A DNA stretch of 64,000 nucleotides from Alphaproteobacteria bacterium RIFCSPHIGHO2_01_FULL_41_14 (GTDB lineage: Bacteria; Pseudomonadota; Alphaproteobacteria; UBA7879; UBA5542), in contig MEMF01000002.1 of assembly GCA_001767855.1 (NCBI GenBank), positions 37,095 through 101,094 of the forward strand, written 5' to 3'. The notes under the pieces are model-generated. The model had not been told where the DNA came from, did not search any database, and worked only from the letters and a program-made list of their open reading frames with translations. Positions 958 to 59,763 of the stretch are shown piece after piece. Position 1 is the stretch's first letter. Every line of letters starts with the position of its first letter. Position numbers and translations under genes: made by a program.

Positions 958-1566
958 GTGAAATTAAAGCGTGGAGATACTATTGTTATTGCCACAAAAA
1001 ATGAGGGCAAGATTGTAGAATTGACCAATCTACTCGCTCCTTATGGTCTTCGCATTCTCACGTTACAAGAACTGAATTTACCCGAACCTGAAGAAATTGG
1101 CTTAACCTTCAAAGACAATGCTCTTCTAAAAGCTCAAGCGTGTGCAGATGCCTCCAACTTTCCGTCTCTCGCAGATGACTCGGGCTTGTCTATCCGTGCC
1201 CTGGGAGGACAGCCTGGTGTTTTCACCTCTCGATGGGCTGGCCCCTCAAAAGACTATCAACATGCCATGAAAAAAATTAATGACGAAATTTTAGCTATTG
1301 ATAGCCATCCTGACCGTCGTGCTTCTTTTATTTGTTCCATAGCCCTATGCTTTCCTGGCAAACAGGGGGCTTTTTCTTTCGAAGGGAAAATTGATGGTGA
1401 ATTTGTCTGGCCCGCCCGGGGATCAGATAATATGGGGTTTGATCCTATTTTTATGCCACAAGGCCATAAAAAAACATTTGCTCAGATGTCATTGGAGGAG
1501 AAACAATCAGTCAGTCATCGGCGCATAGCCTTTCAGAAGTTCTTAGAGATCTGTGTTGAAAAATAA
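958..1566 (+). CDS. rdgB: Non-canonical purine NTP pyrophosphatase (Ham1/RdgB family)
   Basis: 202 aa beginning IVIATKNEGKIVE, a Ham1-family N-terminus. It lies directly downstream of rph as in many bacteria. Confidence 0.85.
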   Translation: MKLKRGDTIVIATKNEGKIVELTNLLAPYGLRILTLQELNLPEPEEIGLTFKDNALLKAQACADASNFPSLADDSGLSIRALGGQPGVFTSRWAGPSKDYQHAMKKINDEILAIDSHPDRRASFICSIALCFPGKQGAFSFEGKIDGEFVWPARGSDNMGFDPIFMPQGHKKTFAQMSLEEKQSVSHRRIAFQKFLEICVEK

Positions 1567-2731: not shown

Positions 2732-2734
2732 CTT

Positions 2735-4066
2735 GTGTTCAACCTCGGAAAATCATATCATCGACTTCACAAAGGCGCATACCATATGACTCGCAGTAAA
2801 ACTATAGGAACTTATTTTTTATTTTTCACACTTCCTCTTATTGCTGTTTTGAAAGGCAAGGGAATTGTAGTTTCTTTGTTTTTAGCTTTTTTCTTATTTA
2901 ATGGCCTCACAGCATTCAAAGATTTTGTGAGGCATAAAGAGTGGAGAAATATTTCCGTTAAAAGTCTTCCTCTCTTTTTTTTCGTATTCTTTTTTCTTTT
3001 CTTTATGCTTTCTTTTTTACAAAATGAGGCCTGCTCCATTTGGCGTCCTTTGAAGCTTATTGGTCTGCTTTCCTTAGTTTTCTTCACTCTGAAAGGATCA
3101 AAAACCCTAGACTTTTCAGAAAAAGAGAGGATCGTTTCTCTTTTTTTTAAAGCTTATATTTTCTACGCTTTGTTTTTGATTTTCGAGATTTATGGAGGAA
3201 GTTGGGTCTCAAAATTTTACACCGGATCAAAAGATTATAATGTTACCCTTTTTATTCGGGGAACTGTTATTTTGACGTTTTTTTTCCTCCCTTTTACCCT
3301 CCTTATCAAGAAAAAATATGGGAAGATTTATGGCCTGTTATTCTCTCTTTTTTTGCTTCTTCTTGTGCTTATAAAAGCCCAACCCAGCGCGGCACGCTTG
3401 GCTGTTCTGGTGGCAGGAATCTTCTTTGCAGCGGGATATTTTCGTAAAGCTTTTGCTGCCACCCTTCTCGGAATAGTGGGAGTCTATATATTGGTTGCCC
3501 CCCTCCTCTCCCTCCATTTTTTAAACCGGAATATTTTGTTTAATCATCTTCATTCTTTGCCGACCAGCTATCAACACCGGGTGGAGATTTGGCATGAGGT
3601 CTCTAAAAATGTGATAAAAAAACCTTGGCTGGGTCACGGATTTGATTACTCCTCACACATCAAAGAATCTCCTCACCGATGTTCCCACCATTCCCTCGCC
3701 AACTTTAAAAAGATTAGTTTTAATGATAAAATTGTCTCCAAAACTCCTCATCTTTGGGGAGGAGTGGTTTGTTATAAGGAGACGATTTTATCAAGCCATC
3801 CCCATAATGGGGCTCTTCAAATTTGGCTAGAGTTTGGGTTTTTAGGGGTCTGTTTTGTATTCTTTTTGTTATATCGGTTTGCCCAATATGCTTCCTCTCT
3901 TCCTTCCTTATTGCGAGGATATACCTACGCTCTTTTTGGGCTGTGTCTCGTTTATTGGAGTGTCAGTTTCGGACTATGGCAAAATTGGATGATTGCTCTA
4001 GCCACCTTGACATTTATTTTGTTTCAACTCATAAATGGCCTGCCTTCAAAGAATAAAGGAAGATAG
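2735..4066 (+). CDS. O-antigen ligase family polytopic membrane protein (Wzy_C / WaaL-like)
   Basis: 443 aa, very hydrophobic with about 10-12 predicted TM segments. It contains the motif RVEIWHEVSKNVIKKPWLGHGFDYSSH, resembling the conserved R..W...P.LG.G.......H loop of O-antigen ligases. The likely true start is the internal Met at about 2786 (MTRSK...). Confidence 0.55.
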   Translation: MFNLGKSYHRLHKGAYHMTRSKTIGTYFLFFTLPLIAVLKGKGIVVSLFLAFFLFNGLTAFKDFVRHKEWRNISVKSLPLFFFVFFFLFFMLSFLQNEACSIWRPLKLIGLLSLVFFTLKGSKTLDFSEKERIVSLFFKAYIFYALFLIFEIYGGSWVSKFYTGSKDYNVTLFIRGTVILTFFFLPFTLLIKKKYGKIYGLLFSLFLLLLVLIKAQPSAARLAVLVAGIFFAAGYFRKAFAATLLGIVGVYILVAPLLSLHFLNRNILFNHLHSLPTSYQHRVEIWHEVSKNVIKKPWLGHGFDYSSHIKESPHRCSHHSLANFKKISFNDKIVSKTPHLWGGVVCYKETILSSHPHNGALQIWLEFGFLGVCFVFFLLYRFAQYASSLPSLLRGYTYALFGLCLVYWSVSFGLWQNWMIALATLTFILFQLINGLPSKNKGR

Positions 4067-4069
4067 AGA

Positions 4070-5014
4070 ATGTACGAATTAGACTTTGAAAAACAAATTC
4101 GAGATTTAGAAGAAAAAATCAAAGAATTAAGCAAGATGTCCGAAAGTAAAGATGTGGATATCGTGGAAGAAGTTTTAATTTTGCAAAAAAAACTCGACAA
4201 ACTTCTCGGGGATACTTACAAAAAACTATCCCCTTGGCAGAAAGTCCAAGTAGCACGCCACCCAAAAAGGCCACACTTTTTAGACTATATCAAGCTTTTG
4301 ATTGAAAACTTTACAGAGCTAGCAGGAGATCGCTTGTTTGCAGAGGATGCCGCTATCGTGGGGGGGATTGGCACATTTCGTGGGCAGCCTGTGGTTATAT
4401 TGGGCCAAGAAAAAGGACATGATATCCAAACGCGCATGCATCATAATTTTGGAGCCCCACGACCAGAAGGGTATCGTAAGGCTCAACGCCTCATGAAACT
4501 GGCGGATCAGTTTCAGTTGCCAGTCATCACGCTTGTGGACACAGCAGGGGCTTATCCTGGTATAGATGCAGAAGAACGTGGGCAGGCAGAAGCGATTGCC
4601 CGCTCCATTGATGTCTGCCTGTCCCTTTCTGTCCCCATTGTTTCCTGTATTATTGGGGAAGGGGGGTCGGGAGGGGCCATTGCTATTGCCGCAGGAAACC
4701 GAATTTTAATGTTAGAAAACTCAATTTACTCTGTTGTTTCACCTGAAGGATGCGCGTCTATTCTTTGGCGCAGTGCCGACAAAAAGAAAGAAGCTGCTGA
4801 AGCTCAAAAATTAACAGCAGAAGACTTGATCGATTTTAAGCTCATTGATCAAATTGTTCCCGAACCCTTAGGGGGCGCTCATCGCAACCCCAAAGAAACC
4901 ATCCTATCGATGGGAGATGCAATTGAAAAATCTCTTAAAGACTTGAAAAATTTTACTCCTAAGCAACTTGTGGCCCGTCGCAGACAAAAGTTTTTAGAAA
5001 TGGGACGTTTTTAA
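4070..5014 (+). CDS. accA: Acetyl-CoA carboxylase carboxyltransferase subunit alpha
   Basis: 314 aa. An N-terminal coiled region is followed by a carboxyltransferase domain (GGAYPGIDAEERGQAEAIARS...GEGGSGGAIAI) typical of AccA. Confidence 0.9.
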   Translation: MYELDFEKQIRDLEEKIKELSKMSESKDVDIVEEVLILQKKLDKLLGDTYKKLSPWQKVQVARHPKRPHFLDYIKLLIENFTELAGDRLFAEDAAIVGGIGTFRGQPVVILGQEKGHDIQTRMHHNFGAPRPEGYRKAQRLMKLADQFQLPVITLVDTAGAYPGIDAEERGQAEAIARSIDVCLSLSVPIVSCIIGEGGSGGAIAIAAGNRILMLENSIYSVVSPEGCASILWRSADKKKEAAEAQKLTAEDLIDFKLIDQIVPEPLGGAHRNPKETILSMGDAIEKSLKDLKNFTPKQLVARRRQKFLEMGRF

Positions 5015-9189: not shown

Positions 9190-11763
9190 TTAATTCTTAA
9201 TTGTCAAGCCTTTATTATTTGTCGATACAGGAACCTTATCTCCCTCTTTAATCTCACCCTCTAAAATTTTCATAGACAGCGGGTTTTGCAAATAGGTTTG
9301 AATCGTCCTCTTCAAGGGACGCGCCCCATACACTGGATCATACCCCCGTTCAGCCAACCATTCTTTAGCCTTTTTATCCACCTCAAGGGTGATCTTCTTG
9401 TCCTTTAAAATGGTCTCTAGGTGCCGCAGTTGAATGTCCACAATCTTCCCCATGTCAGTGCGCGCAAGACGGCCAAAGAGCAAGATTTCGTCCAATCGAT
9501 TTAAGAATTCTGGCCGGAAAGCTCTCTTCACCACTTCCATCACTTCTTCCCGAGCCTTCTCAGTACTCTCTCCATCTTCCAGATGGGCCAGCACTTCACT
9601 GCCCAAGTTAGAGGTCAGAATGATGAGTGTATTTTTAAAATCTACCACATGTCCTTGCCCGTCCGTCAGGCGACCATCATCCAGCACTTGTAAAAGCACG
9701 TTGAACACATCTGGATGTGCCTTTTCCACTTCATCAAATAAAATCACCTGATAGGGCCGACGACGTACCGCTTCGGTTAGAACACCCCCCTCTTCATACC
9801 CCACATAGCCGGGAGGGGCGCCCAACAACCGAGAGACGGAGTGTTTCTCCATAAACTCGGACATATCAATACGCAAAATAGCGTGTTCATCCGCAAACAA
9901 GAATGAGGCGAGCGCCTTGGCTAATTCAGTTTTTCCCACCCCTGTGGGGCCTAAGAATAAAAATGATCCCATGGGTCGATTCGGATCTTGAAGTCCTGCA
10001 CGGGCGCGGCGAACTGCATTACTTACCGCCACCACGGCTTCCTTTTGGCCGACAACCCGCTTATGCAGCTCATCTTCCATATGCACTAATTTATCTTTTT
10101 CGCTGGCCAACATCTGGTCCATGGGGATCCCCGTCCACCGGGACACCACCGCTGCAATATCCTGGCTGGTTACTTCTTCCCGCACCATGGCATGATTCCC
10201 ATTGCGCTCTGAGTTTTTAAGTTTGGTTTCCAGATCAGGAATGAGCCCATACTTCAGCTCTCCTGCTTTAGAAAAATCACCTGTGCGTTCGGCAATGGCC
10301 AAATCATTACGCGCCTTTTCTAATTTCTCCTTTAGATCCTGCGCTTGGGATAACTTTTGTTTTTCGGCTTGCCATGCACCCGTCATATCCGCCGCTTTGG
10401 ATTCAAACTCTTTCAGCTCTCCCTCCAAATTTTTCAACCGTTCTTGAGAGCCTGGATCTGTTTCTTTTTTCAAAGCTTCCCGCTCGATCTTCAGCTGCAT
10501 GATGCGACGGTCCAATTCATCCAAGGCCTCTGGCTTGGAATCCACTTCCATGCGCAATCGGCTCCCCGCCTCATCAATCAGATCAATCGCCTTATCCGGC
10601 AAAAATCGGTCGGAAATATATCGGTTTGAGAGCGTTGCAGCCGCTACAATCGCCGCATCCGTAATGCGCACGCCGTGGTGCAATTCGTATTTCTCTTTCA
10701 AACCACGCAGAATAGAGATGGTCTCTTCCACCTTAGGCTCCGGCACAAAGACGGGCTGGAAGCGCCGAGCCAAAGCCGCATCTTTTTCGATATATTGGCG
10801 ATACTCATCCAGCGTCGTTGCCCCCACACAATGAAGCTCTCCGCGCGCGAGCGCAGGCTTTAGCATGTTGGAGGCATCCATGGCCCCATCCGTTTTCCCC
10901 GCGCCCACCAGCGTGTGCAATTCATCGATAAACAAAATAATAGAGCCTGCGGCAGATTCTACTTCAGACAAGACGGCTTTCAATCGTTCTTCAAACTCTC
11001 CTCGATACTTGGCACCCGCGATCAACGATCCAAGGTCTAAAGACATCAATTGTTTATCCTTTAGGCTTTCAGGCACATCTCCGTTCACAATACGCAGCGC
11101 CAAGCCTTCCACGATGGCTGTTTTACCCACCCCTGGCTCTCCAATCAACACAGGATTGTTCTTTGTCCTGCGAGAAAGAACTTGAATGGTACGGCGAATC
11201 TCTTCATCTCGGCCGATGACAGGATCAAGCTTGCCCTCTCTTGCGGCTTGGGTCAGATTGCGCGCATACTTTTTTAGGGCGTCATACGTATCTTCTGCGC
11301 TGGCGGAATGGGCCTGTCGCCCTTTACGCATTTCTTGAATGGCATGGTTTAGGGACTGTGGCGTCAAACCAGAAGATTTGAGGATTTTCCCCACTTCATC
11401 CGAGGTTTGTAAACTCATAGCCAGTAGAATCATTTCGAGGGTCACAAAACTGTCTCCCGCCTTTTCAGCCGTCTTCTCAGCTTCCTGTAATACACGAGAG
11501 AGTTCTTGGGACATATAAGGTTGGCCTGCCCCACTTCCCTGCACAGAAGGGATTTTTTTGAGAGCCGCTTCCACATCCACCGATACCAATTTTGGATTAC
11601 CACCAGCCGCCTGGATCAGGCTTGCCGCCATCCCTTGAGAATCATCATTAAATACTTTTAGAAGATGCTCTGGCAGTAGCTTTTGATGACCCAAATTCTG
11701 AGCCAACGTCTGTGCCGACTGCAAAAAACCCTTTACGCGATCTGTATATTTTTCTAGATTCAT
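9190..11763 (-). CDS. clpB: ATP-dependent chaperone ClpB (Hsp100 disaggregase)
   Basis: 857 aa. Two AAA+ modules with Walker [16 protein letters not shown] and [15 protein letters not shown], a long middle coiled-coil, and the N-terminal Clp_N domain. Near-identical stretches to E. coli ClpB ([18 protein letters not shown]). Confidence 0.95.
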
Positions 11764-37574: not shown

Positions 37575-38576
37575 ATGCTAAATTTCAAGAAACTTCTATC
37601 TGTTGGTTTATTGTCAGCTTTTGCCTTAGGGACACTCTCAAGTTATGGGGCACCCGATGAGGGAGCAGCCATTCAGCCGGCCCTCGTTCGCCTGATTGTT
37701 TCCGAATCAGATATCGTCGCTGTTCAACCCTCCGCCGCTGCTGTTCAACCCTCCGCCGCTCCCACTCCCATCTCTTCTGTCACACACCCCACAGACGATG
37801 CTCCCCAAGCTGGATGTTGGGGTAAATTCCTTAGTTGTTGGAAAAAAACTAGTGAAGGAGTGAATGCCATTCTCCCCATTCTTCGGAATGACTTACTGCC
37901 TATCTTACAAATAGTGGCTCTCAACTTAGATCCAAATTCCAGCGAGGCTAAACAACTCCATCAGATTGCGAGTGGCATAGAAAAAGGGACAACTATAGCT
38001 GGCATGATATTTGATCCGAGCACTGGGCAACTTACTCTTCCCAGCGGTGTAACTATTGCCAATGCTCTCTGGTATCTCTGGAATGAAAAATCTTCCACGC
38101 TTACGGATGATTCCGTAGCACTCGGTGGTGTGATGATAAATCGGTGGATGAAGGACATTAATGGAGATACAAAAAAATACGGTATTATTACTGCTAAACT
38201 TGTCCAACTTACCCTTCTCCTCTCAAAGGCAGACGACCCTAAAACCCCTTATAATCCGGTATTTAATCCAACTACAGGGACTGTGTCTCTTAAAAGTGAT
38301 CATAGCCCCCAGCTTCTTGTCAGTATTCCTCTTTTTGGGGAAGAGACTACCCCAGAGACGCATACATTTTTAAAAGGATGCTTTGCAGAATTTGTTCCAG
38401 CCTATGAGAGACGCACTAGCGAAGAAATATCCAATGGAGGGCGCAGAATCCCTGGGAGCTTCCTCCCAGCCACAGGTGTAATATTATCGGCTTACAATAC
38501 ATTAAGGGGAGAGAATCCTCTCTATAGAGCTATAGACCTAGCAATAACTGCTGCAGCTACAGTCACAGACGCTTAA
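37575..38576 (+). CDS. Hypothetical secreted protein with an internal AVQPSAA tandem repeat
   Basis: 333 aa. A strong AGGAGG RBS sits 6 nt upstream. A signal peptide (LLSVGLLSAFALGTLSSYGA) is followed by a Pro/Ala-rich repeat and a globular C-terminal part with no recognised family. Confidence 0.45.
   Translation: MLNFKKLLSVGLLSAFALGTLSSYGAPDEGAAIQPALVRLIVSESDIVAVQPSAAAVQPSAAPTPISSVTHPTDDAPQAGCWGKFLSCWKKTSEGVNAILPILRNDLLPILQIVALNLDPNSSEAKQLHQIASGIEKGTTIAGMIFDPSTGQLTLPSGVTIANALWYLWNEKSSTLTDDSVALGGVMINRWMKDINGDTKKYGIITAKLVQLTLLLSKADDPKTPYNPVFNPTTGTVSLKSDHSPQLLVSIPLFGEETTPETHTFLKGCFAEFVPAYERRTSEEISNGGRRIPGSFLPATGVILSAYNTLRGENPLYRAIDLAITAAATVTDA
37719..37760 (+). repeat. Perfect 2 x 21 bp in-frame tandem repeat (GCTGTTCAACCCTCCGCCGCT)
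   Basis: Directly visible at 37719..37739 and 37740..37760. It encodes AVQPSAA twice within the 37575 ORF. Confidence 0.85.
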
Positions 38577-49977: not shown

Positions 49978-50547
49978 ATGGTAAAGTTAACGAAGATTTA
50001 TACACGAACAGGAGATAAGGGAACCACTTCATTAGGAGATGGAAAAAGAATTTCAAAAACCTCTTTACGTATTCAAGCTATCGGCTCCATAGATGAATTA
50101 AATGCCGCTTTAGGCGTGACCGGTCTTTTTTTGTCTGACCCCTCATTAAAAGAGATAAGACACATTCAGAATGACCTTTTTGATGTGGGGGCTGACCTAT
50201 GTATTCCCGAGGAATCTCCTAAAAAATCCTTGCAGTTGAAAGACAATCAAGTGCAGTGGCTGGAAGAAAAAATTGACTCCTTTAATAAGAACTTAGCCCC
50301 TCTTTCTTCCTTTATCCTCCCCGGTGGATCTGCTGCCTCTGCCCATCTTCATCTCTCTCGAACTATTGCACGACGAGCGGAGAGAGATGTGATTGCCCTG
50401 TCTGAACAAGACAAAATTAATCCAGAGGTAGTCATGTACCTTAATCGTCTTTCAGACTACCTGTTTGTGTTAGGACGGGTTTTGAATAATAATGGAACAG
50501 AGGATGTTTTATGGATTCCTGCCAAAAGCCAGATGGAAAGAGCTTAA
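49978..50547 (+). CDS. ATP:cob(I)alamin adenosyltransferase, PduO type
   Basis: 189 aa. The N-terminal KIYTRTGDKGTTSLGDGKRISK is the hallmark of PduO-type corrinoid adenosyltransferases. Confidence 0.8.
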   Translation: MVKLTKIYTRTGDKGTTSLGDGKRISKTSLRIQAIGSIDELNAALGVTGLFLSDPSLKEIRHIQNDLFDVGADLCIPEESPKKSLQLKDNQVQWLEEKIDSFNKNLAPLSSFILPGGSAASAHLHLSRTIARRAERDVIALSEQDKINPEVVMYLNRLSDYLFVLGRVLNNNGTEDVLWIPAKSQMERA

Positions 50548-50548
50548 A

Positions 50549-51106
50549 ATGAGTTTATTTTTATACCTATTTCTTTTAGGCACCTTGTTCGTTAGCTCTG
50601 GAAGTACAAAAAATCTGGGATATTGCCCAAAAGACCCTGCTAAAGCCTGTCAAGCCTCCCTATCTACCGCCCTAAACATACTCACCAACTGTGCCCTTGA
50701 CAGACCCCGCATAAAGGAATGCGCAATGATTTTTATTGAGACGCTTTCTGAGGCGGATGACAAGGCCCCCTTTTACGAAGAATTCTATGAAAAGAATTTC
50801 GAAGTGGGCAATGTGGAGGCTTACAAAAAAGAGATAGAAAGCCTAAAACAGTATAGTCAGCGTGCATGGCTTGTTCTTCATAACTTATCAAAAGCTCTCA
50901 TTCTAAATTATATAGATGTATCTAAATTAACAGCGGAACAAAAAAGAGAGATAGAAAACCTCATCCAACCCGTCTTCGAGATATCGGAAAACCGCAAGTT
51001 TGATATTAATGACGCCGTTCACAGAAAGCTTTTCATAGAAAAAGAATTAAGCCGCGCTCAAGCCATCGAATGGGGATCCCCTGACAAAAAAATAATTCTT
51101 TCCTAG
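50549..51106 (+). CDS. Hypothetical secreted Cys-containing protein immediately upstream of the T6SS genes
   Basis: The start is taken at ATG 50549 (MSLFLYLFLLGTLFVSSG signal peptide) to avoid the 5' overlap. About 185 aa, four Cys in the first 60 residues. No family recognised. Confidence 0.4.
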   Translation: MSLFLYLFLLGTLFVSSGSTKNLGYCPKDPAKACQASLSTALNILTNCALDRPRIKECAMIFIETLSEADDKAPFYEEFYEKNFEVGNVEAYKKEIESLKQYSQRAWLVLHNLSKALILNYIDVSKLTAEQKREIENLIQPVFEISENRKFDINDAVHRKLFIEKELSRAQAIEWGSPDKKIILS

Positions 51107-51216
51107 CCCCTTTTTCTGCTGGCATTTTTTCTTGAGTTGTCTGAATGGAAATTGTAAGGTGAAGGGGAGAGACTCTTTTAGTATTTTATATTAAAAAGTC
51201 GTCTACCGGGGCAGGT

Positions 51217-52557
51217 ATGGAAGAAAAATTTAGCTTTAAAATTCAAGATTTTGTTCAGTGGTATGAAGGGCAGCTTCTTTATCCTCATCACTATCAACAA
51301 ATGCGGTATGAAATCCAACAATTAGCCCTATGTTATCTTTCCATCTCTACGCCGTGGTATTGGGGCATACGGTCCCTAGAAATAGACGAAGCCTTATTGC
51401 CAAGTGGTATCATCAGAATTAATTCGGTTTTAGCTGTTTTCCCAGATGGATCTGTCTTGGAAAAAGACAAGATCACCCCCCCCTTCTTAGAAATAGATAT
51501 TTCCTCTCTCAAAGGAGAATTAGAGAATAAAGAAGCGACCATTTACTTAGCTGTTATCAAGCGTCAACCAGACAGCGCCAATACGACAGGTGATTTCCCT
51601 CGCTACATTTCCGCAGAATCAAATGCCATTGTAGATGAAAATACAGGAGAAAGTCCTCTTAACATAGCCAAACTTTCTTTAAGAGCGCTGCTCGTTACAG
51701 AAGAGAAGCTATCTGCTCGCCTCTCTGCTTTCCCTCTGATGAAAATTCTTGTCCAAAATGGAGCTTTTCGTAAAACTAACTTTATTCCGCCTACTCTTTC
51801 TTTTGGCACAGAGGGACCCATTGCAGAACCATTAAAAATTTTGATTACAAAACTAAGGCAACACATTTCTTATCTGTCTGTTCGTCTTCAAGGGCTTAAA
51901 ACAAAAGATCTGATTTCAGTATTAGATTATTACAACACCGTTTATAACGTTTTAACCAGCCGCATTTTATCGCTAGAAGGTATTTATGAGTCAATCGACA
52001 CTCATCCCTATGAGATGTATAAAGAGCTTAATATCGCTGCGGGTACTTATTGCGCTCTGAACCACAATAAACCTCCGCCTGTTTTTCCTCCTTATAATCA
52101 TAGTGATCTAAACGCCACCTTCAGCCCGATAATGGATTTCATTAATGAAATCATAGAATCTATAAAAAGCGCCTCCATTTCTATTATTTTTGATCAAGAC
52201 GGAAGCGTGTTCCAGCAACAAATAAAAGAACCGTATTTGGCTAATAAAATCCTTGTTATTGGTGTGCGTCTTGGAAAAAACATGAGCCGGGCCACAGGCA
52301 TTAGCTGGATTAAGGGAGCTGTCATCTCTTGTGACTTTGCGATCAAAGATATAAAGGAAAAAAGAATTCTAGGGGCAGAAAGAGAGCTGGTAGAACAAAT
52401 TCCCGAAATGGGTCTAGCTGCAGTTCAAGATCAAGTTTTCGTGAAGGTTACAGTAGATCCTGCCTTCATTCGAGCCGATGAATTCTTAAAAATATTTAAC
52501 CCTTCTGACAGAGAAGATTCTCGTCCTGAAGATCTTTTTCTATACGTGGCAGGGTAG
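51217..52557 (+). CDS. tssK: Type VI secretion system baseplate protein TssK (ImpJ/VasE family)
   Basis: 446 aa. The N-terminus VQWYEGQLLYPHHYQQ...PWYWGIRSLEIDEALLPSGIIRINSVLAVFPDGSVL parallels the TssK signature (W.eG..L.PQHFQQ ... PWG...D...L..G.L.....A.FPDG). Its stop abuts the tssL start. Confidence 0.8.
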   Translation: MEEKFSFKIQDFVQWYEGQLLYPHHYQQMRYEIQQLALCYLSISTPWYWGIRSLEIDEALLPSGIIRINSVLAVFPDGSVLEKDKITPPFLEIDISSLKGELENKEATIYLAVIKRQPDSANTTGDFPRYISAESNAIVDENTGESPLNIAKLSLRALLVTEEKLSARLSAFPLMKILVQNGAFRKTNFIPPTLSFGTEGPIAEPLKILITKLRQHISYLSVRLQGLKTKDLISVLDYYNTVYNVLTSRILSLEGIYESIDTHPYEMYKELNIAAGTYCALNHNKPPPVFPPYNHSDLNATFSPIMDFINEIIESIKSASISIIFDQDGSVFQQQIKEPYLANKILVIGVRLGKNMSRATGISWIKGAVISCDFAIKDIKEKRILGAERELVEQIPEMGLAAVQDQVFVKVTVDPAFIRADEFLKIFNPSDREDSRPEDLFLYVAG

Positions 52558-53343
52558 ATGCACACAGATATCTATTTGAAATCTGCCATATTACAAGATT
52601 TTAGAACTTTCTATCGTGAGTTGCTTATCTTACAAGACATGGCTCTTGAGCATGGGATTTCTAAAAAAGAGACAAAAACACCCGATGAAACCGCGGTTGA
52701 ATTGGCTCAGTCCCAAGACCAAACGCTCGGTCATCGTATCCGACAACGATTAGAAAACCTCTTTATGTCTCAATATTCTGAAGTGAGTAACCAAATCTAT
52801 GTGGCGTCATATTATCGAGAAGCTCAATACATCATGGTCGCTCTGGCAGATGAGATTTTTATCAATTTAAATTGGCGCGGCAGTGAAGAGTGGAAGGATA
52901 ACTTATTAGAATCTCTTATTTACAACACACAAGATTCGGGGGATAAATTTTTTGAAAATCTAGACCTTCTTCTAGGTGCTAAGAGTTCCCAATCAACAGA
53001 TATGGCTGCCCTTTATTTGTTTGCTTTGGGTCTGGGCTTTAAGGGAAGATACCGGGGAACAAAAAACGAAGACGAACTTTTTGCTTATCGAAAAAAACTA
53101 TACCGGTATATTACTGCTGACAATCTAGACTTATTGGAAAATAGATCCCCTCTTTTTCCTCAGGTGTATGAAAACATTATTGATGATCGGCAAAACATAA
53201 TAATCCCAGATTCTCGCCCTTGGTGGATATCATTAGGAGTCATTCTGGTAGGTTTTATCGGCGTGTCTTCTCTCATTTGGTTAACGCATATGAATATTTT
53301 TTCTCCTCTTATTCGCACACTTGAAAAATGGTCAGGATTTTAG
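52558..53343 (+). CDS. tssL: Type VI secretion system membrane protein TssL (DotU/ImpK family)
   Basis: 261 aa with a DotU-type core (YIMVALADEIFINLNWRGSEEW ... MAALYLFALGLGFKGRYRG) and a single C-terminal TM helix (WWISLGVILVGFIGVSSLIWL). Confidence 0.8.
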   Translation: MHTDIYLKSAILQDFRTFYRELLILQDMALEHGISKKETKTPDETAVELAQSQDQTLGHRIRQRLENLFMSQYSEVSNQIYVASYYREAQYIMVALADEIFINLNWRGSEEWKDNLLESLIYNTQDSGDKFFENLDLLLGAKSSQSTDMAALYLFALGLGFKGRYRGTKNEDELFAYRKKLYRYITADNLDLLENRSPLFPQVYENIIDDRQNIIIPDSRPWWISLGVILVGFIGVSSLIWLTHMNIFSPLIRTLEKWSGF

Positions 53344-56300
53344 ATGAGTGATATTTCTTCATTCCAGCTCATTCTCTCTATTCTCGGACTGGGAAGTCTT
53401 GTCTTTATGTTGGCCACTTATTTGTCGGGAATTGGTCTTAAGGAGCAATTCGAAAAAGTAGGCATCCGTACTCTTTCAATTTTTGGGGCCTTAAAAGATG
53501 TGTTGGGAGGAAAACGAGAGCTTAACTCTCTTTCCTTTAAACATTTTTTTCAAGATCTTTTTTATGGCATTCTAAATCTATTCGGCATTTATCCTCAGGG
53601 ACCTTTTTATGAATCTATGCGACAAGTGGTTCGGGCTCTCGAGGAAAGAACGGGCTCTAAGAAAACTCTTTACGAACTTCCTTGGTTTATCATGGTTGGT
53701 ACTGAAGGTGCAGGAAAATCATCTTTATTAGGAAACTTGACCTTATCAACCCCCATTTCCAGCCCAAATTTTGGCAACCCAGATGGCCATCCTCTCATCC
53801 AGTGGTGGTTCTATGAAAGGGGAATTGTTCTTGATATTAGCGGAAGAGTTCTGGACTCAAAACAACCCTCTCTGACAGAGTCTTGGGAAACTTTTTTGAA
53901 AGCACTCAGACGGTATCGCCCTCATCGTCCTCTGGATGGGATTATTTTTACTGTCCCCTCTACTCAATTTGCAGGCCCCGGGCAGCTGTCAAAACCTGAA
54001 CTGGTAGAACAAGCACACCAGCTCTCTAACCAGTTGGTCAAAATTGAAAAAATATTAGGCCTGAAACTTCCTCTCTATGCTTTATTGACAAAATGCGATG
54101 AAGTTGGAGGGTTCCAAAGCTTTGTAAAATCTTTGCCTCAAAAGTCTCTGGGAGAACCATTTGGATGGTCCAACCCTTACGCCACCAATCTCTCTTTTGA
54201 TCCAAAGTGGATCTCAGAAGCATTTCAAACCATGTATGCCTCAGTATACGAAATCATTATTCGAATTTTCGGGAATGAATCGACGGAAAACCCTGGTCGT
54301 AATGAAGTTGTTGCTTTCCCAGAAAGTTTTATTCAGCTCCAAGATTCAGTTCAAACCTATCTCAGCGTTTTATTTAAAACAGGAGACTATGACGATCACT
54401 TTATCTTTAGGGGCCTCTTTGTCACAGGAACTGGGGAAGAGAATGCATCGTTAAAAATACTAGCTCAACCTTTTTTATCTGATTTATTTACCAAAAAAAT
54501 ATTCTCTGAATTCGGGCTTGCGACCCCTATTAAAAAGTTTTTCCTCATTATGAGTAAAAAAATTAATTTACTGAGATTCTCTATCTCGGCAGCTTTTATT
54601 ATCGCGATTTATGGGCTCTGTTGGACCAATCAATATTTGACAGATACCCTTTACCATATTCGGCCATTAATCAAACAAGTTCAGGAAGATCTGGAAACTA
54701 AAAACTGGGACAATAGTTTTAAAGAAAAGAAGGTGGATATTACCCAACACGAAGGGAAAGCAGTCCTCCAACTTTTAGACACTATTTATACTTATCGGTT
54801 ACGCCACCTGTTGATTCCCATGTCATGGGTAAGCCCCACTGTTTACAAACTTGATCATGTCACAGCCGAACTTTATAACAAAATCATTGCAAGGAATATG
54901 GCCGCCTTTTTAGGAGCGAAAGCAGATCGCTTAACAACGGCTCCCCTCTCGATAACCCCGTCTCAAAAAGTATATCAGTCACCTCTTGAAACTTCAGAAT
55001 TTTTGTTACTGGAAGGTTATGTAAAAGGTCTGGCTAACTTAGAGCGAGCAAGCCTTCTTTATGCAACTCTACAAGAAACTCAAGATCTCTTCCAATTAGC
55101 GGAAATTCTAAATTATCTTTATGGTTACTCCCTCAGCCCTGATTTCTTAAAATCCAGAGTTGCAAAAAGAATTCTTATTACACAGGCCTCTTACGAAACA
55201 TTTGATATAAGCAGCTACCGCCTTTACGCCGAAAAACGACTTTATCTCCTCTATGATGTCTTCCTTAGAAAAATTCTAGACCCTGAGTATATTTATTCTT
55301 TAGCTGGTCGATTGCAAAATTCTCTTCAGCATGTGGAAGGAAGACGCCAGCCTGATCTGGAAATCCTGAAAAAAAGCATCTCCGACATTAAAGAGTTAGT
55401 AGGATTCTTAACTCAGGCTGGAGGAAGCTGGCTTTCGAACCCCCAATTCAACCCCGGCTCTCGTTATCAACAATTGATTGATCAAATCAAACATATTGGC
55501 TTGCTAGGAACGAATATTCCTCAAACTCTGTCTGAAACCTCTGGTAGAATGTATGAAAAAGCGGTTCGATATCTAAGAAGTTATGGATCTTCTATAACTG
55601 GTTATTTTTTAAGTGTTTCCCCCCAGACTCAGAAATTAGAGCCCTCTCCTGGCCTTATCAATCTTGAAAAGCAATTAGATACCTTCTTACAACAACCTTT
55701 TATGCAAAAAGCATCCGGATCTTTCTTTGTTGATAAAATTCCCCAAGGACAATTCTTACACTGGGATTCTCAGGCCGTACGCAATGCTGTTTCTCTCGTG
55801 GAGGCTTATAAATCTTTCGTAGGGACAGAGCTCACAAAATATCCTGCTAATTTGCAAGATACTCTTCGTCAAGCTGGTTTTTACCAAACTCAAAGAAATA
55901 TAGAAGCCATGCTTGAGCAGGCCCAGACTTTCTATGAAGATCCTCAGCGTGATTGGTCAGAACAAGCTGAAGATGCGAGACGCGCCCAGTCTATGAACAT
56001 TAATGAAGTGGGTCCTTTGTTCATCAAACTCATTAAGGATCTGGATGCGATGGGAGGAGGAGCAACTTATTTAAGGCTTAGAAATCTTTTGTTTGAACAA
56101 ATGTATAAGAACCTAAAAAACCTCGACAAAACTTTAAGAGACAGCGCCTATTATCAACCCCCAGATCAAAGTTTTTCATCCTGGAAAGGAGAAACTGACG
56201 GTGTCCTTAAGGCCTTTAATATAACCGACGTCTCAGAGATGAAGGATTATTTTGCGAATCAGAGTGCCCGAATTTTAACTATGGTCATTAATAATGCCGA

Positions 56301-57411
56301 ACCTGTTATCGAAATATTTAAAGCAGATTTGTTTGATACCAATATTGATCAAATTAAATTGATTAGTAAATGGAATGGTCTTGTGGAGCAGGCCATTTCC
56401 TACAAAAAATCTAAAGCCAGCGGCTCTATGAAGTCTCTTGAAAAATTCATGGAAGAGGACGGTAATAAAATTACTTATGCAACGTGTTTCACAGACTTGA
56501 AACCAGAGAAATTTGATCAACCCTCTAGTGATTATTTTACTGAGAAACAAAATGATCTCAAGCGGAGTATGTATAAACGTTGTCAGGAACTGGCAGCTGA
56601 GAAGGGGGCTCAACAATATAATAAACTGGAAAATACCTTTAACACTTATCTTGCAAACTCTTTCCCATTTACGAGACAGGTTCCCAACACCCCTCAACTC
56701 GAATCTGAAGCTTCTTGGCCACTCTTACAAGAACTCTTTACAGAGTTAGAAGTTTTAACACCTGGTGTGAGACAATCCTTAAAAGAGTCCAAAAAATACA
56801 GCAATGGATGGAAGAAAGTCGAAAAATTCATTTCTCAGCTTGATAGCGTCAAAAAATTCTTCGAGACTTATTTTTCTCCCCTAAAAAAAGACAGTGATCC
56901 TGGGATGACCTTTAACATTAAATTCCGAGACAATAGGGTTAAAGAATCCTTCGGAAACCAAATATCAGATTGGGCCATTATTTTTGGTGATAAATCTCTT
57001 AGTATTCGACAAAATGGTTCAGGGGTTTCCAATGGACGATGGGTGATGAGTAGCCCTGTTTCTTTCGGCTTTCAGTGGACCACTCCCTCTGTTCTCCTAC
57101 CCTTAACAGAGACGAATATTCCCTCCCTCGTAAAGGTGAATGATCGATCCTTATTTGTTTATGAAGGCACTTGGAGTATCTTGCGTGCGATCATGCTGCA
57201 CCTTGCAAAACCAGAAGAAGGAGGCTCCCTTACCAATGATGTCCTTTTAAAATTTGAAATCCCCCTTGGACCCCCTTCAGCCACCGCCCCAGTTTCCCTA
57301 GCTAAATTGTATCTGAGACTTATGCCTCAAACAGAGAAAGGCCAAAACGCTGTTAACTTCAAGATTCCAACTTTCCCGGTCCAAGCTCCCAAACTAATAG
57401 GAGAAATGTGA
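53344..57411 (+). CDS. tssM: Type VI secretion system membrane subunit TssM (IcmF family)
   Basis: 1355 aa. An N-terminal TM helix, a cytoplasmic P-loop (WFIMVGTEGAGKSSLLGN), a further TM at about residue 410, and a large periplasmic C-terminal region. The gene order K-L-M matches T6SS membrane-complex operons. Confidence 0.8.
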   Translation: MSDISSFQLILSILGLGSLVFMLATYLSGIGLKEQFEKVGIRTLSIFGALKDVLGGKRELNSLSFKHFFQDLFYGILNLFGIYPQGPFYESMRQVVRALEERTGSKKTLYELPWFIMVGTEGAGKSSLLGNLTLSTPISSPNFGNPDGHPLIQWWFYERGIVLDISGRVLDSKQPSLTESWETFLKALRRYRPHRPLDGIIFTVPSTQFAGPGQLSKPELVEQAHQLSNQLVKIEKILGLKLPLYALLTKCDEVGGFQSFVKSLPQKSLGEPFGWSNPYATNLSFDPKWISEAFQTMYASVYEIIIRIFGNESTENPGRNEVVAFPESFIQLQDSVQTYLSVLFKTGDYDDHFIFRGLFVTGTGEENASLKILAQPFLSDLFTKKIFSEFGLATPIKKFFLIMSKKINLLRFSISAAFIIAIYGLCWTNQYLTDTLYHIRPLIKQVQEDLETKNWDNSFKEKKVDITQHEGKAVLQLLDTIYTYRLRHLLIPMSWVSPTVYKLDHVTAELYNKIIARNMAAFLGAKADRLTTAPLSITPSQKVYQSPLETSEFLLLEGYVKGLANLERASLLYATLQETQDLFQLAEILNYLYGYSLSPDFLKSRVAKRILITQASYETFDISSYRLYAEKRLYLLYDVFLRKILDPEYIYSLAGRLQNSLQHVEGRRQPDLEILKKSISDIKELVGFLTQAGGSWLSNPQFNPGSRYQQLIDQIKHIGLLGTNIPQTLSETSGRMYEKAVRYLRSYGSSITGYFLSVSPQTQKLEPSPGLINLEKQLDTFLQQPFMQKASGSFFVDKIPQGQFLHWDSQAVRNAVSLVEAYKSFVGTELTKYPANLQDTLRQAGFYQTQRNIEAMLEQAQTFYEDPQRDWSEQAEDARRAQSMNINEVGPLFIKLIKDLDAMGGGATYLRLRNLLFEQMYKNLKNLDKTLRDSAYYQPPDQSFSSWKGETDGVLKAFNITDVSEMKDYFANQSARILTMVINNAEPVIEIFKADLFDTNIDQIKLISKWNGLVEQAISYKKSKASGSMKSLEKFMEEDGNKITYATCFTDLKPEKFDQPSSDYFTEKQNDLKRSMYKRCQELAAEKGAQQYNKLENTFNTYLANSFPFTRQVPNTPQLESEASWPLLQELFTELEVLTPGVRQSLKESKKYSNGWKKVEKFISQLDSVKKFFETYFSPLKKDSDPGMTFNIKFRDNRVKESFGNQISDWAIIFGDKSLSIRQNGSGVSNGRWVMSSPVSFGFQWTTPSVLLPLTETNIPSLVKVNDRSLFVYEGTWSILRAIMLHLAKPEEGGSLTNDVLLKFEIPLGPPSATAPVSLAKLYLRLMPQTEKGQNAVNFKIPTFPVQAPKLIGEM

Positions 57412-57418
57412 AAAGATC

Positions 57419-58558
57419 ATGCCCCTTTATGAAACGCTAGATCCTCTTTTACAAGACATCCCCGGTCCAAATCCTCAAGGAAAAGACCTTAAATATAGCA
57501 CAGAATATGATCAAATCAGAGAAGCCTCTCGAGAAGACTTAGATTTGCCCCAGGGTGTGTGGGTGCAAGATTTAAAATCTGCAAATTGGGGGGACGTTGA
57601 AAAACTATGCCTAAATATTTTACAAACACAATCGAAAGATTTGCAGGTTGTTGCTTGGCTCTTAGAAGCTTGGATGTCTCTTTATAGTATGAAAGGGCTC
57701 AAGCAAGGGTTTGATTTACTTTTACAGATGTCTCAGAAATATTGGGATACAGCATTCCCTCAACTTAATCCGCAAGATCCTGAGTTCAGAAGCGCGCCAT
57801 ATAATTGGATTAATGAAAGATTATCTAATCGGTTTAATAAGATTGAAGTAACAGCCCCTGATGATCCAGATCTTTTAACTTATTCCTATTCAACCTACCT
57901 TGATCTCCAAAAAGATGGGGGTATTGTTATTACGGGTTCTTCAGAAGAGCAAAACCTTTCTGAAAAGAGAACCGGATTTGCAAAAAGTCTCAAAAAAACC
58001 AAAGACGATTTTTTTGTTGGTCTTAAAGCTGATGGAGAAGAAACCCTAACTCTTATTAAAAATCTGCAGTCGTTTTTAGACAGTAAGTTCGGGGCTGACG
58101 GCCCCTCTCTTTATCACGCTCAAGATAAAATACAAGAATTTATTAACTTTTTCGAACAGACGCTAGCCGCTCGGCATCAGCCTCAAGAAAATGTTTCAGT
58201 CAAACTCGAGGCAGGAGAAGAGGAAGAAAACGCCTCTTCCTCAGAAAACACGCCCCCTGCTGCCAATACAAATGTGCATGTGGACATGGTGATGAACAGC
58301 CGTTCTGATGCCTATGCTCTTATCAATCAGGCCGCAGATTATTTAGAAAAACTTGATCCCCACAGCCCATCACCCCATCTTATTAAACGCGCGATTCGAT
58401 GGAGTAATTTAGACTTAAAGAACTTGCTGCAAGAAATGATTAAAGATCCAAGTTCCCTTGAAGACCTCAAACATCTTCTCGGCATGGCCCAGGAGACAAA
58501 TACCTCCGAAACAGGTGACGCTCTCTCCGGCCCACAATCAACCGATCCCTCTTCTTAA
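57419..58558 (+). CDS. tssA: Type VI secretion system protein TssA (ImpA N-terminal domain family)
   Basis: 379 aa. The N-terminus LLQDIPGPNPQGKDLKYSTEYDQIREASRED...WGDVEKLCLNILQTQSKDLQVVAWLLEAW matches the ImpA_N signature (P.G.DL.YD..F..L...R ... SKDL.V..WL..A). Confidence 0.75.
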   Translation: MPLYETLDPLLQDIPGPNPQGKDLKYSTEYDQIREASREDLDLPQGVWVQDLKSANWGDVEKLCLNILQTQSKDLQVVAWLLEAWMSLYSMKGLKQGFDLLLQMSQKYWDTAFPQLNPQDPEFRSAPYNWINERLSNRFNKIEVTAPDDPDLLTYSYSTYLDLQKDGGIVITGSSEEQNLSEKRTGFAKSLKKTKDDFFVGLKADGEETLTLIKNLQSFLDSKFGADGPSLYHAQDKIQEFINFFEQTLAARHQPQENVSVKLEAGEEEENASSSENTPPAANTNVHVDMVMNSRSDAYALINQAADYLEKLDPHSPSPHLIKRAIRWSNLDLKNLLQEMIKDPSSLEDLKHLLGMAQETNTSETGDALSGPQSTDPSS

Positions 58559-58659
58559 TCCTTTATGGCCCCAGCAGTTTTTAAGAACTTGGATATCTTT
58601 TCCTAGTTGCACTCTCTGCATGATCATCGTATGGTTATTTCAAATGTATATGGGTTAAC

Positions 58660-59763
58660 ATGATTTTTATTTGGAAAATTTTATTCTTCTTTTCTATCTT
58701 CTGTTTTTCTTTTACAGCTATTTGTAAAAAAGAAGAAAAAGTTGTTCATGTTTATTTCTGGGCTGGCACGATTGATGAAAGCACCATAAAAAAATTCGAA
58801 AAAGAAACCGGTATCAAGATTAAATGTGACTATTATGACGGCGATGAAATTCTAGAAACGAAACTCCTAACAGGAAGCTCCCTTTATGATGTGGTGATGC
58901 CTTCTGCTGTGCCTTATTACAGCCGTCAGGTACGGCTTGGATTATATCGTCCCTTAGATCGCTCACAATTACCTAACTGGAAAAATCTAGATCCGCATAT
59001 TGTGAAACTACTAGAGACGGTGGACCCAGGTAACAAATATGGAGTCCCTTATAGCTGGGGCACCACGGGGTTTCTTTATAATCCAGACACCCTTAAAAAA
59101 TACTTGCCTCCTGATACGCCTCTGGATACATATCGTATTATCCTCGATGAAACAATTATGAGAAAATTATCTAAGTGCGGTGTTGGATTGATTGATCAAC
59201 CTCAAGATGCATTGGAAGCTTTTCTCGCTTACCTAAAAATTAAACCTAACTATAAGGACTTATCCCAAATAGACACCGTGAAAAAAGTTGTGGAGAGAAT
59301 TCGTCCTTATATAAAGTTTTTCGCTATTAGTTCGGATAAAATGATCACAAACGCAGTGAGTGGGGAAGCATGCCTTGTTCAAACATGGTCGGCAGAGGCA
59401 TTTCACGCTCAAAGACTCGCTGAGAAAATCAAAAAGAAATTATTGTTTGTGATTCCTCGTGAGCACAGAGGAGCTTGGTGTGATTTACTAGCGATTCCCA
59501 AAAATGCGCCACACCCAGAAAATGCGCATAAATTCATTGACTTTATGATGCGCCCTGACATTGCTGCTGTTAATTTAGAGAACACATTCATGACCATTGC
59601 CAATGTTCCAGCCCAAAAATTAATACCGGCTTACTTAAAGAACAGTAAGATTATTTTTCCACCCAAAGAAGTTCTAGACAATTTGAAACTAAGCGAAACA
59701 CTACCCCTCAATTACGAAAGAAAAACAACCCGAATGTGGGCTCATATTAAAGCAAGACAATAG
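58660..59763 (+). CDS. potD: Spermidine/putrescine ABC transporter periplasmic substrate-binding protein (PotD/PotF family)
   Basis: 367 aa with a signal peptide, then VHVYFWAGTIDESTIKKFEKETGIKIKCDYYDGDEILETKLLTGSSLYDVVMPS typical of the PotD N-lobe. It lies about 26 kb away from potABC. Confidence 0.75.
   Translation: MIFIWKILFFFSIFCFSFTAICKKEEKVVHVYFWAGTIDESTIKKFEKETGIKIKCDYYDGDEILETKLLTGSSLYDVVMPSAVPYYSRQVRLGLYRPLDRSQLPNWKNLDPHIVKLLETVDPGNKYGVPYSWGTTGFLYNPDTLKKYLPPDTPLDTYRIILDETIMRKLSKCGVGLIDQPQDALEAFLAYLKIKPNYKDLSQIDTVKKVVERIRPYIKFFAISSDKMITNAVSGEACLVQTWSAEAFHAQRLAEKIKKKLLFVIPREHRGAWCDLLAIPKNAPHPENAHKFIDFMMRPDIAAVNLENTFMTIANVPAQKLIPAYLKNSKIIFPPKEVLDNLKLSETLPLNYERKTTRMWAHIKARQ

Follow-up and report, generated by a model that had tools for sequence, protein, structure and literature searches.

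A tssK-tssL-tssM-tssA operon in an uncultured Holosporales bacterium as a probable module of a split type VI secretion system

[quoted passage not shown] The TAG of tssK abuts the ATG of tssL, the TAG of tssL abuts the ATG of tssM, and 7 nt separate tssM from tssA. These data show that tssK, tssL, tssM and tssA form one translationally coupled operon. All four ORFs are intact, including the 1355 codons of tssM, and the module sequence is identical among six assemblies. Coordinates, strand and every motif quoted in a preliminary description of the locus, made from the letters alone, were recovered in the translations. A promoter and terminator scan of the region returned fewer promoter-like sites than shuffled sequence did. 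The same description had called the host gene-poor; the window is gene-dense instead, because 94.6% of it is coding.

Profile HMM searches bore out the four proposed gene identities, and with them the assignment to membrane-complex, baseplate and cap functions. TssK matched PF05936 (E = 9.5e-41; 140.4 bits versus a cut-off of 23.4) and passed the TIGR03353 equivalog model (197.5 bits versus 100), and it is 56–63% identical to the same-position orthologues of three relatives (L007, L008 and L012). It is the baseplate subunit that links the wedges with the membrane complex. TssL, the inner-membrane subunit of that complex, matched the DotU family PF09850 (E = 1.6e-30; 106.7 bits versus 27) and fell marginally under the cut-off of TIGR03349 (87.9 versus 89.95 bits). 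Its single transmembrane helix is a C-terminal anchor (residues 224–242), and the protein has no peptidoglycan-binding extension. TssA, which acts as the cap or coordinates assembly when tube and sheath polymerise, matched PF06812 (ImpA_N; E = 2e-33, 115.4 bits) and TIGR03363 (260.3 bits versus 160.85), with residues 7–355 aligned to positions 3–353 of the 353-position profile. A cluster representative close to this TssA (P0432; 337 aa, from a TPA MAG labelled Holosporales) has been annotated as ‘type VI secretion system protein TssA’; the exact sequence of the window carries only the name ‘hypothetical protein’.

For TssM, recognition by sequence models stopped at the N-terminal third. PF14331 (IcmF-related_N) covered residues 179–397 (E = 6.4e-40; 137.6 bits), TIGR03348 matched only residues 91–483 (171 bits versus a cut-off of 388), and residues 88–399 aligned with a classical TssM at an hhalign probability of 100%. 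The protein begins with a transmembrane helix (residues 9–27), followed by a cytoplasmic NTPase domain with the Walker A motif GTEGAGKS (residues 119–126), in which G119 and K125 are invariant in 21 homologues, and by a further helix (residues 409–427). Beyond this lies a sequence-divergent periplasmic region of ~925 aa, which matched neither PF06761 (IcmF-related) nor PF06744 (IcmF_C), was not recognised by hhalign against a classical TssM, and found no TssM in a sequence-profile search of the PDB with the 21-homologue alignment. Many of its residues are invariant across those homologues, and its predicted structure is confident (pLDDT 85.9), with a C-terminal periplasmic domain of the TssM fold, corresponding to the TssJ-binding, channel-forming domain. 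Two domains are thereby retained in TssM: the NTPase domain and, judged from the model, a periplasmic domain of TssM type at the C-terminus. The protein had been called long at 1355 aa, and it is long throughout the clade (1340–1490 aa). Compared with the canonical T6SS-i TssJ–TssL–TssM complex (EAEC Sci-1; PDB 4Y7M and 6HS7), the periplasmic region is ~200 residues longer and unmatched by the two periplasmic Pfam models, and no recognisable TssJ adjoins the operon.

The tssJ position is taken by a small secreted ORF on the plus strand (50549–51106; 185 aa when read from the second ATG), which lies 110 nt ahead of tssK. This ORF had been overlooked, and it stands at the place of a published T6SS lipoprotein gene (CPBP_00933, see below). 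The encoded protein starts with a hydrophobic stretch and contains the conserved motif KNLGYCPK; L007, L008 and L012 have orthologues with 58–66% identity at the corresponding place. If started at 50492, the ORF would encode 204 aa (615 nt), and this length and its position, both matching CPBP_00933, speak for membership in the module; against membership, its ATG lies 1 nt past the stop codon of the adenosyltransferase gene upstream. Also against membership, no TssJ match was found at E ≤ 1 (TIGR03352 or PF12790), and KNLGYC, which follows the hydrophobic N-terminus, shows no canonical lipobox when read by eye. A single-sequence AF2 model was all-helical and unreliable (pLDDT 46). In Caedimonas (L017) and in two unsplit clusters (L023 and L024), the slot upstream of tssK holds a lipoprotein with a lipobox; that of Caedimonas reads LAGC, and the protein matches the TssJ model TIGR03352 below threshold (E = 2.3e-4). 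At most, the ORF of the window is a candidate for a fifth module member.

Other T6SS genes were sought in three ways. Precomputed Pfam annotations of called genes were inspected for window positions 1 to ~10.7 kb and ~41–64 kb and for 10 kb on each side; all unannotated ORFs in the window were searched with Pfam; and the window and flanks were searched by tblastn with a PDB-validated VipB probe and lineage-matched probes for TssB, TssC, Hcp, TssE, TssF, TssG, VgrG, DUF4280, MORN and ClpV. By Pfam and tblastn, no further T6SS gene, ClpV included, was found in these 84 kb (the window ± 10 kb). The three checks agree with the earlier statement that the window holds no others. The sole tblastn match came from the ClpV probe, which cross-matched ClpB. 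The Hsp100 at 9190–11763, previously described as a canonical ClpB, scored as such on TIGR03346 (1388 bits versus a cut-off of 1232) and stayed under the cut-off of the ClpV model (839.5 versus 885), on which the true ClpV of L023 scored 1225.

The window is identical to MELX01000007.1, from an uncultured groundwater MAG (GCA_001767775.1), and identical or near-identical proteins (HCI48744–47) occur in an NCBI MAG named ‘Holosporales bacterium’. Relatives retrieved with the TssM profile are titled as Holosporaceae or Alphaproteobacteria MAGs, the closest loci as Holosporaceae bacterium, and Caedimonas contributes one of the TssM homologues. On these sequence relationships the host can be placed in the Holosporales, in line with the earlier guess at an intracellular-type alphaproteobacterium. 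The gene order K-L-M-A is the same in L007–L012. L007, L008 and L012 also share the flanks, with ApaG, PBP4, CobAT and the small ORF on one side and PotD, DUF3035 and Pgi on the other; MutL comes next in L007 and L012, and L008 ends inside Pgi. Module proteins are 50–66% identical in relatives, comparable to the flanking housekeeping genes (38–89%). These data show that vertical inheritance has kept the block, together with its housekeeping surroundings, throughout the clade. Isolated among non-T6SS genes in the window, K-L-M-A is likewise isolated in Caedimonas (L017); L019 has an isolated K-L-M block only, with no TssA Pfam match downstream.

According to a review, nearly every sequenced genome of the Holosporales/Holosporineae has conserved a T6SS, Holospora itself having lost it (PMC11909080). 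The conserved arrangement, published for Bodocaedibacteraceae, Paracaedibacteraceae and Caedimonadaceae, is a split into at least four loci, and tssK-tssL-tssM-tssA in exactly this form is one of them; ClpV is not listed among the components, and the T6SS genes are transcribed in Ca. Bodocaedibacter (PMC8163844). The preliminary description had considered a T6SS, or a split one, no routine expectation in such a host, but both were already in print for Holosporales (PMC11909080, PMC8163844). For Ca. Bodocaedibacter vickermanii (Midha et al. 2021, PMC8163844), the supplement lists CPBP_00933 (‘T6SS membrane lipoprotein’, 615 nt) directly upstream of tssK, then 934 as TssK (1341 nt), 935 as TssL and 936 as TssM, followed by CPBP_00937, which we infer to be TssA from the K-L-M-A order stated in the paper. 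TssB/C/Hcp-like genes are listed there at 985–987 and VgrG at 353/355. As far as that gene list goes, the two loci are alike in layout and lengths: the same K-L-M-A order isolated among housekeeping genes, a 1341-nt tssK, a 615-nt ORF directly upstream and a long tssM (4272 nt there, 4068 nt here). They differ in that the upstream ORF of the window lacks a lipobox or TssJ signal, whereas CPBP_00933 is annotated in that supplement as a T6SS lipoprotein.

We also looked for T6SS genes beyond the window. The closed 558-kb alphaproteobacterial genome CP060235.1 carries a fused tssBC with an ORF in the Hcp position, and tssG-tssF ~2.6 kb from tssBC; LigA and a BamD-like gene lie in the interval. 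At L058, a locus that groups with the window's clade by tetranucleotide signature (r = 0.926), tssC, an ORF in the Hcp position and tssE lie beside housekeeping genes. L058 was considered as the window genome's own tssC locus and rejected in favor of a clade relative: its PrmC shares only 39% identity with that of the window, and its r is below the 0.946–0.968 of window fragments. A search anchored on ApaG, chosen because ApaG of Bodocaedibacter lies four genes from tssBC-hcp, showed no T6SS genes nearby among the homologues and two contexts viewed. With a TssC profile seeded from the unsplit clusters, the best 120 matches were all TssC of Desulfobacterales, Myxococcota or Acidobacteriota type; from a 50%-identity representative library came ~16 divergent, AT-biased TssC representatives, with TssB-TssC fusions frequent among them. 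One of these led to CP060235.1 and another to an uninformative 3.4-kb contig. Metagenome DNA was scanned with the clade-derived TssC motif Y-x-[LMI]-N-x-S-R-F-A-H-Y-x-K, and 80 of the loci listed (L027–L106) were screened, leaving out 40 (L107–L146). All 80 were TssC, mostly GC-rich, and the window's JGI contig was absent among them. A scan of viral contigs for this genome's sheath genes gave no match.

For comparison, two contiguous T6SS clusters, L023 (JGI 3300078403) and L024 (GCA_024449895.1), contain K-L-M-A in the same order. Their TssM proteins (1404–1488 aa, with PF14331 as sole Pfam domain) are of the same long type as that of the window, and TssK, TssL, TssM and TssA are 23–35% identical to its counterparts. 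In both clusters the block runs on into tssB-tssC-hcp-tssE-tssF-tssG-clpV, and in L023 clpV-vgrG-MORN/YwqK-like-DUF4280-SPOR-lipoprotein comes before it, whereas none of these T6SS genes occurs within the 84 kb examined here. MAGs of Desulfobacterales, Myxococcota and Acidobacteriota contain TssC proteins that share 70–88% identity with those of L023 and L024.

All four genes are genuine T6SS components. We consider it very probable that they constitute the tssK-tssL-tssM-tssA operon of the multi-locus (‘split’) T6SS that typifies Holosporales; the present one comes from an uncultured member of the order found in groundwater. TssL and TssM would form the envelope-spanning membrane complex, onto which TssK would dock a TssE/F/G–VgrG baseplate, and TssA would prime polymerisation of an Hcp-like tube and TssB/C sheath. 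To judge from the relatives, the partner modules [tssB-tssC-hcp], [tssF-tssG] with or without tssE, and [ywqK-vgrG] would lie at other loci of the same genome. Sheath contraction would then deliver effectors, and the recipient would most likely be a eukaryotic (protist) host. The split layout probably arose by break-up of an ancestral contiguous cluster with the order J-K-L-M-A-B-C-Hcp-E-F-G-ClpV.

Such a system might be complete and yet run without canonical TssJ and ClpV, with a lineage-specific periplasmic partner and an extended TssM, and with ClpB recycling the sheath. We regard this variant as rather doubtful, yet more likely than a tail-less K-L-M-A complex. In sheath disassembly, the T6SS-ii of Francisella reportedly uses ClpB, not ClpV. 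The window resembles that system in that the sole Hsp100 seen in it is a canonical ClpB, and differs in being of T6SS-i type by HMMs; the absence of ClpV covers 84 kb. Another comparison is offered by Acinetobacter baumannii, where, as outlined in PMC10564176, a non-canonical membrane complex without TssJ has co-opted lineage-specific envelope proteins and gained a new TssM domain; AsaA is described as a periplasmic partner of TssM (PMC6602968). This complex could, speculatively, serve as an analogy for the KNLGYCPK protein and the enlarged periplasmic region of TssM, although a Holosporales relative, Caedimonas, keeps a TssJ-like lipoprotein.

Alternatively, the operon could be a decaying remnant, in which sheath, tube and spike have been lost and the leftover K-L-M-A genes are heading to pseudogenisation. 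The absence of any other T6SS gene in 84 kb would fit, as would the genome reduction of the host lineage and the loss of the T6SS from Holospora (PMC11909080). Yet decay is hard to reconcile with four intact ORFs, the long tssM among them, whose order and lengths are kept in species-level relatives and whose products, at 50–66% identity, are conserved like their housekeeping neighbors. Nor does it suit the Walker A motif and the many periplasmic residues invariant in 21 homologues, the confidently predicted fold of the periplasmic region, or the fact that an isolated K-L-M-A block is normal in relatives described as carrying the other modules (PMC8163844). We judge a remnant improbable.

Less probable still, and very unlikely, is a stand-alone envelope complex of TssK, TssL, TssM and TssA, perhaps with the KNLGYCPK protein, that works with no contractile tail in a genome devoid of sheath, tube and spike genes. 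It would account for ~900 periplasmic TssM residues unlike classical TssM in sequence and for an unrelated-looking secreted protein in the clade's tssJ position. However, we know of no role for TssK and TssA beyond baseplate docking and tail polymerisation, the same long TssM is found inside complete contiguous clusters with sheath, tube, baseplate and ClpV (L023 and L024), and tssBC, tssE and tssFG are present in relatives whose T6SS is split. A Dot/Icm-type T4BSS accessory pair (IcmF/IcmH), as the preliminary description had already argued, is effectively refuted: DotU and IcmF-N families are common to both systems and the T4BSS models match weakly, but IcmH_DotU_IVB (38.7 bits versus 50) and IcmF_IVB (31.9 versus 1000) stay under their cut-offs, the T6SS-specific TssK and TssA equivalogs pass theirs in the same operon, the window contains no Dot/Icm gene that we could find, and the homologous blocks of L023 and L024 lead straight into tssB, tssC, hcp and tssE-G.

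The split-module reading does not overturn current understanding, and its main yield is a correction of annotation: proteins labelled ‘hypothetical protein’ in 2016 groundwater MAGs are the products of an operon for membrane complex, baseplate and cap. The long TssM is genuine, but divergence has carried its periplasmic region past the reach of sequence models, which explains the patchy automated annotation. With a different-looking secreted protein in the clade's tssJ slot and no ClpV nearby, the review's remark on a ‘non-standard T6SS’ becomes testable. The published Holosporales modules map one-to-one on consecutive segments of the contiguous long-TssM cluster of free-living-type bacteria, and this mapping provides a concrete ancestor for the fragmentation of the T6SS. 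The operon belongs to a secretion system that is thought to mediate the interaction of Holosporales with their hosts.

Curated HMMs bore out the preliminary description of a type VI secretion system (T6SS) module, tssK-tssL-tssM-tssA (K-L-M-A), at 51217-58558 on the forward strand: the coordinates of all four ORFs were exact, and the gene identities right. TssK matched TIGR03353 at 197.5 bits (cut-off 100), TssL/DotU matched PF09850 (E=1.6e-30), and TssA matched TIGR03363 end to end at 260 bits (cut-off 160.85). TssM matched PF14331 (E=6.4e-40), with TIGR03348 covering residues 91-483 only. The T4BSS-specific IcmF and IcmH models scored far under their cut-offs, in line with the original reading of a T6SS rather than Dot/Icm. 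TssL has one predicted TM helix, at its C-terminus, and in TssM a Walker-A NTPase region lies between predicted TM helices 9-27 and 409-427. No base separates the tssK stop from the tssL start or the tssL stop from the tssM start, and tssA follows tssM after 7 nt. This layout fits what would be a single translationally coupled operon. A scan for consensus promoters and terminators gave nothing informative for the module.

By hhalign, the window TssM aligns with classical TssM over residues 88-399 only. Its IcmF_C-less homologues (n=26) carry only the N-terminal Pfam domain and measure 1340-1490 aa, leaving aside two fragmentary ones (936 and 823 aa). A search of the family profile against PDB sequences found no TssM. 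Based on the homologue lengths, the N-terminal-only Pfam and hhalign matches and the lack of a PDB match, the window protein is a true TssM, of which the periplasmic part has diverged in sequence and is ∼200 residues longer. The predicted TssM fold is regarded as established, as are the component identities, the operon layout and the conservation.

The window is identical to MELX01000007.1 (247 kb), of MAG GCA_001767775.1, and to JGI and ENA groundwater contigs. Six independent assemblies, from different samples and pipelines, are nucleotide-identical wherever they cover the module and its flanks (window 49978-59763), and four of them span all four genes. The population is therefore clonal or highly homogeneous. 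Identical proteins have been deposited for 'Alphaproteobacteria bacterium GWA1_45_9 / GWB1_45_5' and for a TPA MAG labelled 'Holosporales bacterium' by NCBI; all but one of the deposited copies are named 'hypothetical protein'. We found no mention of MAG GCA_001767775.1 specifically in the literature. On the same contig, ∼2 kb past the right window edge, lies an alternative oxidase gene (PF01786 AOX; L015:13314-13934).

The module is conserved. All six species-level relatives carry K-L-M-A in this order. The three closest (L007, L008 and L012) share with the window an upstream flank of ApaG-PBP4-adenosyltransferase-small ORF and a downstream flank of PotD-DUF3035-Pgi, followed by MutL in L007 and L012; L008 stops inside Pgi. 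Identities of the module proteins in these three are 50–66%, comparable to those of flanking housekeeping genes. When one genome per species was scanned with the TssM profile, six loci came up, each from a Holosporaceae or Alphaproteobacteria MAG, one of them a closed 1.02-Mb chromosome. Caedimonas supplies one TssM homologue, and its K-L-M-A block is likewise isolated. In L019, a JGI relative, the isolated block is K-L-M alone; Pfam gave no TssA match downstream of it. In the closed Holosporaceae chromosome CP060261.1 (L012:9347-14055), tblastn aligns TssL, TssM and TrkH only in fragments or in part, which points to frameshifts, whether long-read assembly errors or real pseudogenisation. A SPOR-domain (peptidoglycan-binding) gene sits directly upstream of lipoprotein-tssK in Caedimonas (L017:5903-7141) and in L023 (6732-7352). 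The SPOR gene of L019 (324-1418) lies ∼6 kb upstream of tssK, in the opposite orientation and separated from it by several housekeeping genes; none adjoins the window module.

The absence of the remaining T6SS genes from the window, as first described, was upheld by Pfam and tblastn. In precomputed Pfam calls for this contig, which span window 1-∼10.7 kb and ∼41-64 kb as well as 10 kb past each edge, all genes other than K-L-M-A are housekeeping genes, and Pfam found no T6SS domain in those window ORFs that could not be named by eye. A VipB probe, validated on PDB 5MXN (1078 bits), had no tblastn match in the window and flanks; nor did lineage-matched TssB, TssC, Hcp, TssE, TssF, TssG, VgrG, DUF4280 or MORN. 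The sole match from the lineage-matched probes was that of ClpV cross-matching ClpB, as expected, and curated models agree that the Hsp100 of the window is ClpB. The coding share of the window is 94.6%. Among the matches listed, indirect routes such as searches of representative proteins and a metagenome motif scan yielded no tail-gene copy of this genome. The case for a complete T6SS in this genome would draw on relatives and the literature.

An isolated K-L-M-A in an intracellular-type alphaproteobacterium, initially regarded as the special feature of this locus, proved to be the documented norm for Holosporales. In Bodocaedibacteraceae, Paracaedibacteraceae and Caedimonadaceae, a T6SS dispersed over at least four loci, with tssK-tssL-tssM-tssA as one of them, is conserved, and in Ca. 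Bodocaedibacter its genes are transcribed (Midha et al., PMC8163844). Entries in the supplement of that paper include CPBP_00933 ('T6SS membrane lipoprotein', 615 nt), CPBP_00934 (TssK, 1341 nt), CPBP_00935 (TssL) and CPBP_00936 (TssM, 4272 nt). From the K-L-M-A order stated in the paper, we infer that CPBP_00937, next after TssM, is TssA. Elsewhere, the supplement lists TssB, TssC and Hcp-like (CPBP_00985-987), VgrG (CPBP_00353 and 355), and, at a separate locus, TssG and TssE (CPBP_00258). According to a review (PMC11909080), nearly all sequenced Holosporales genomes keep a T6SS, 'probably a non-standard one' since it seems to lack the inner tube and the outer-membrane lipoprotein, both main components; the review uses the names TssD and TssJ swapped relative to standard usage. 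The window module is a further instance of this documented arrangement.

The long TssM also has two more remote homologues, which lie within unsplit T6SS clusters, in L024 (GCA_024449895.1; lipoprotein-K-L-M-A-B-C-Hcp-Hcp-E-F-G-ClpV) and L023 (JGI 3300078403; ClpV-VgrG-MORN(YwqK-like)-DUF4280-SPOR-lipoprotein-K-L-M-A-B-C-Hcp-E-F). Given these gene orders, each published Holosporales module corresponds to one consecutive segment, suggesting that the split layout is a broken-up ancestral contiguous cluster. Among the matches listed, TssC of the two clusters is 70–88% identical to TssC of Desulfobacterales, Myxococcota and Acidobacteriota MAGs.

Split modules were also seen in two further relatives. 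The closed 558-kb alphaproteobacterial genome CP060235.1 has a fused tssB-tssC followed by a 180-aa ORF in the Hcp position (L026:12064-12606, forward strand), with tssG-tssF ∼2.6 kb away, beyond ligA and a BamD-like gene. A 444-kb metagenome contig (L058, 40.6% GC) carries tssC, a 194-aa Hcp-position ORF (4403-4987, reverse strand), tssE and a 752-aa protein, adjoining prmC and nth. Neither Hcp-position ORF has a Pfam or NCBIfam match, consistent with literature in which Hcp of Holosporales is 'apparently lacking' or only 'Hcp-like'. The tetranucleotide signature of L058 is within the window's clade (r=0.926, versus 0.91–0.97 for clade relatives and, among the matches listed, 0.46–0.89 for other AT-rich TssC loci). 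As the window genome's own tssC locus it was rejected: its PrmC and that of the window share just 39% identity, so the contig belongs to a relative. Its 752-aa protein (1417-3675, reverse strand), encoded directly downstream of tssE, is Lys/Glu-rich, begins with a hydrophobic stretch and matches no family; it is a candidate for an effector or accessory function. Many AT-rich, fast-evolving (endosymbiont-type) members of this T6SS lineage have TssB-TssC as a single ORF of 587–690 aa, seen in CP060235.1 (L026:10001-12052) and in some twelve representative proteins (e.g. P0340, P0345 and P0320). Several fusions have derived TssC motifs: FCW for YLW, LNxSRFAHY for LAASRFAHY, and FFSxQS for FFGG.

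The slot upstream of tssK differs among these loci. In Caedimonas, L023 and L024, a canonical lipobox (LAGC or FPAC) marks the ORF there, and the Caedimonas lipoprotein matches TIGR03352 (TssJ) near full-length, at a sub-threshold E=2.3e-4. In the window, the slot holds a Cys-rich, predicted helical and, as read by eye, secreted protein (50549-51106, forward strand), which starts 1 nt past the adenosyltransferase stop. It and its orthologues in the three closest relatives (L007:7241-7795, L008:7005-7577 and L012:7144-7725) share an invariant KNLGYCPK motif that follows a hydrophobic N-terminal stretch, by eye a signal peptide. HMM searches gave no TssJ signal and no family match for the window protein, which could have diverged from TssJ, could replace it, or could be unrelated to it. 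A precedent comes from Acinetobacter, in which a membrane complex lacking TssJ draws on recruited envelope proteins and a new domain of TssM (PMC10564176). Other forward-strand window ORFs with signal-peptide-like N-termini and no family match are the adjacent 20536-21084 and 21144-21749, with hydrophobic N-termini, conserved cysteines and weak mutual similarity (24% identity over 139 aa, E=0.002), and 37575-38576 (333 aa), with a short N-terminal-proximal AAVQPSAA repeat.

The ancestral-type clusters L023 and L024 include ClpV, which was not found in the 84 kb examined of the window genome (window and flanks). In Francisella, ClpB recycles the sheath. Because ClpV is absent from those 84 kb and is not among the listed Holosporales T6SS components (PMC8163844), ClpB may do the same here. 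By established T6SS biology, TssL and TssM would build the envelope-spanning channel, TssK would dock the TssE/F/G-VgrG baseplate, and TssA would prime polymerisation of the Hcp tube and TssB/C sheath. Contraction would then deliver effectors into a host cell, for which a protist is the most plausible candidate.
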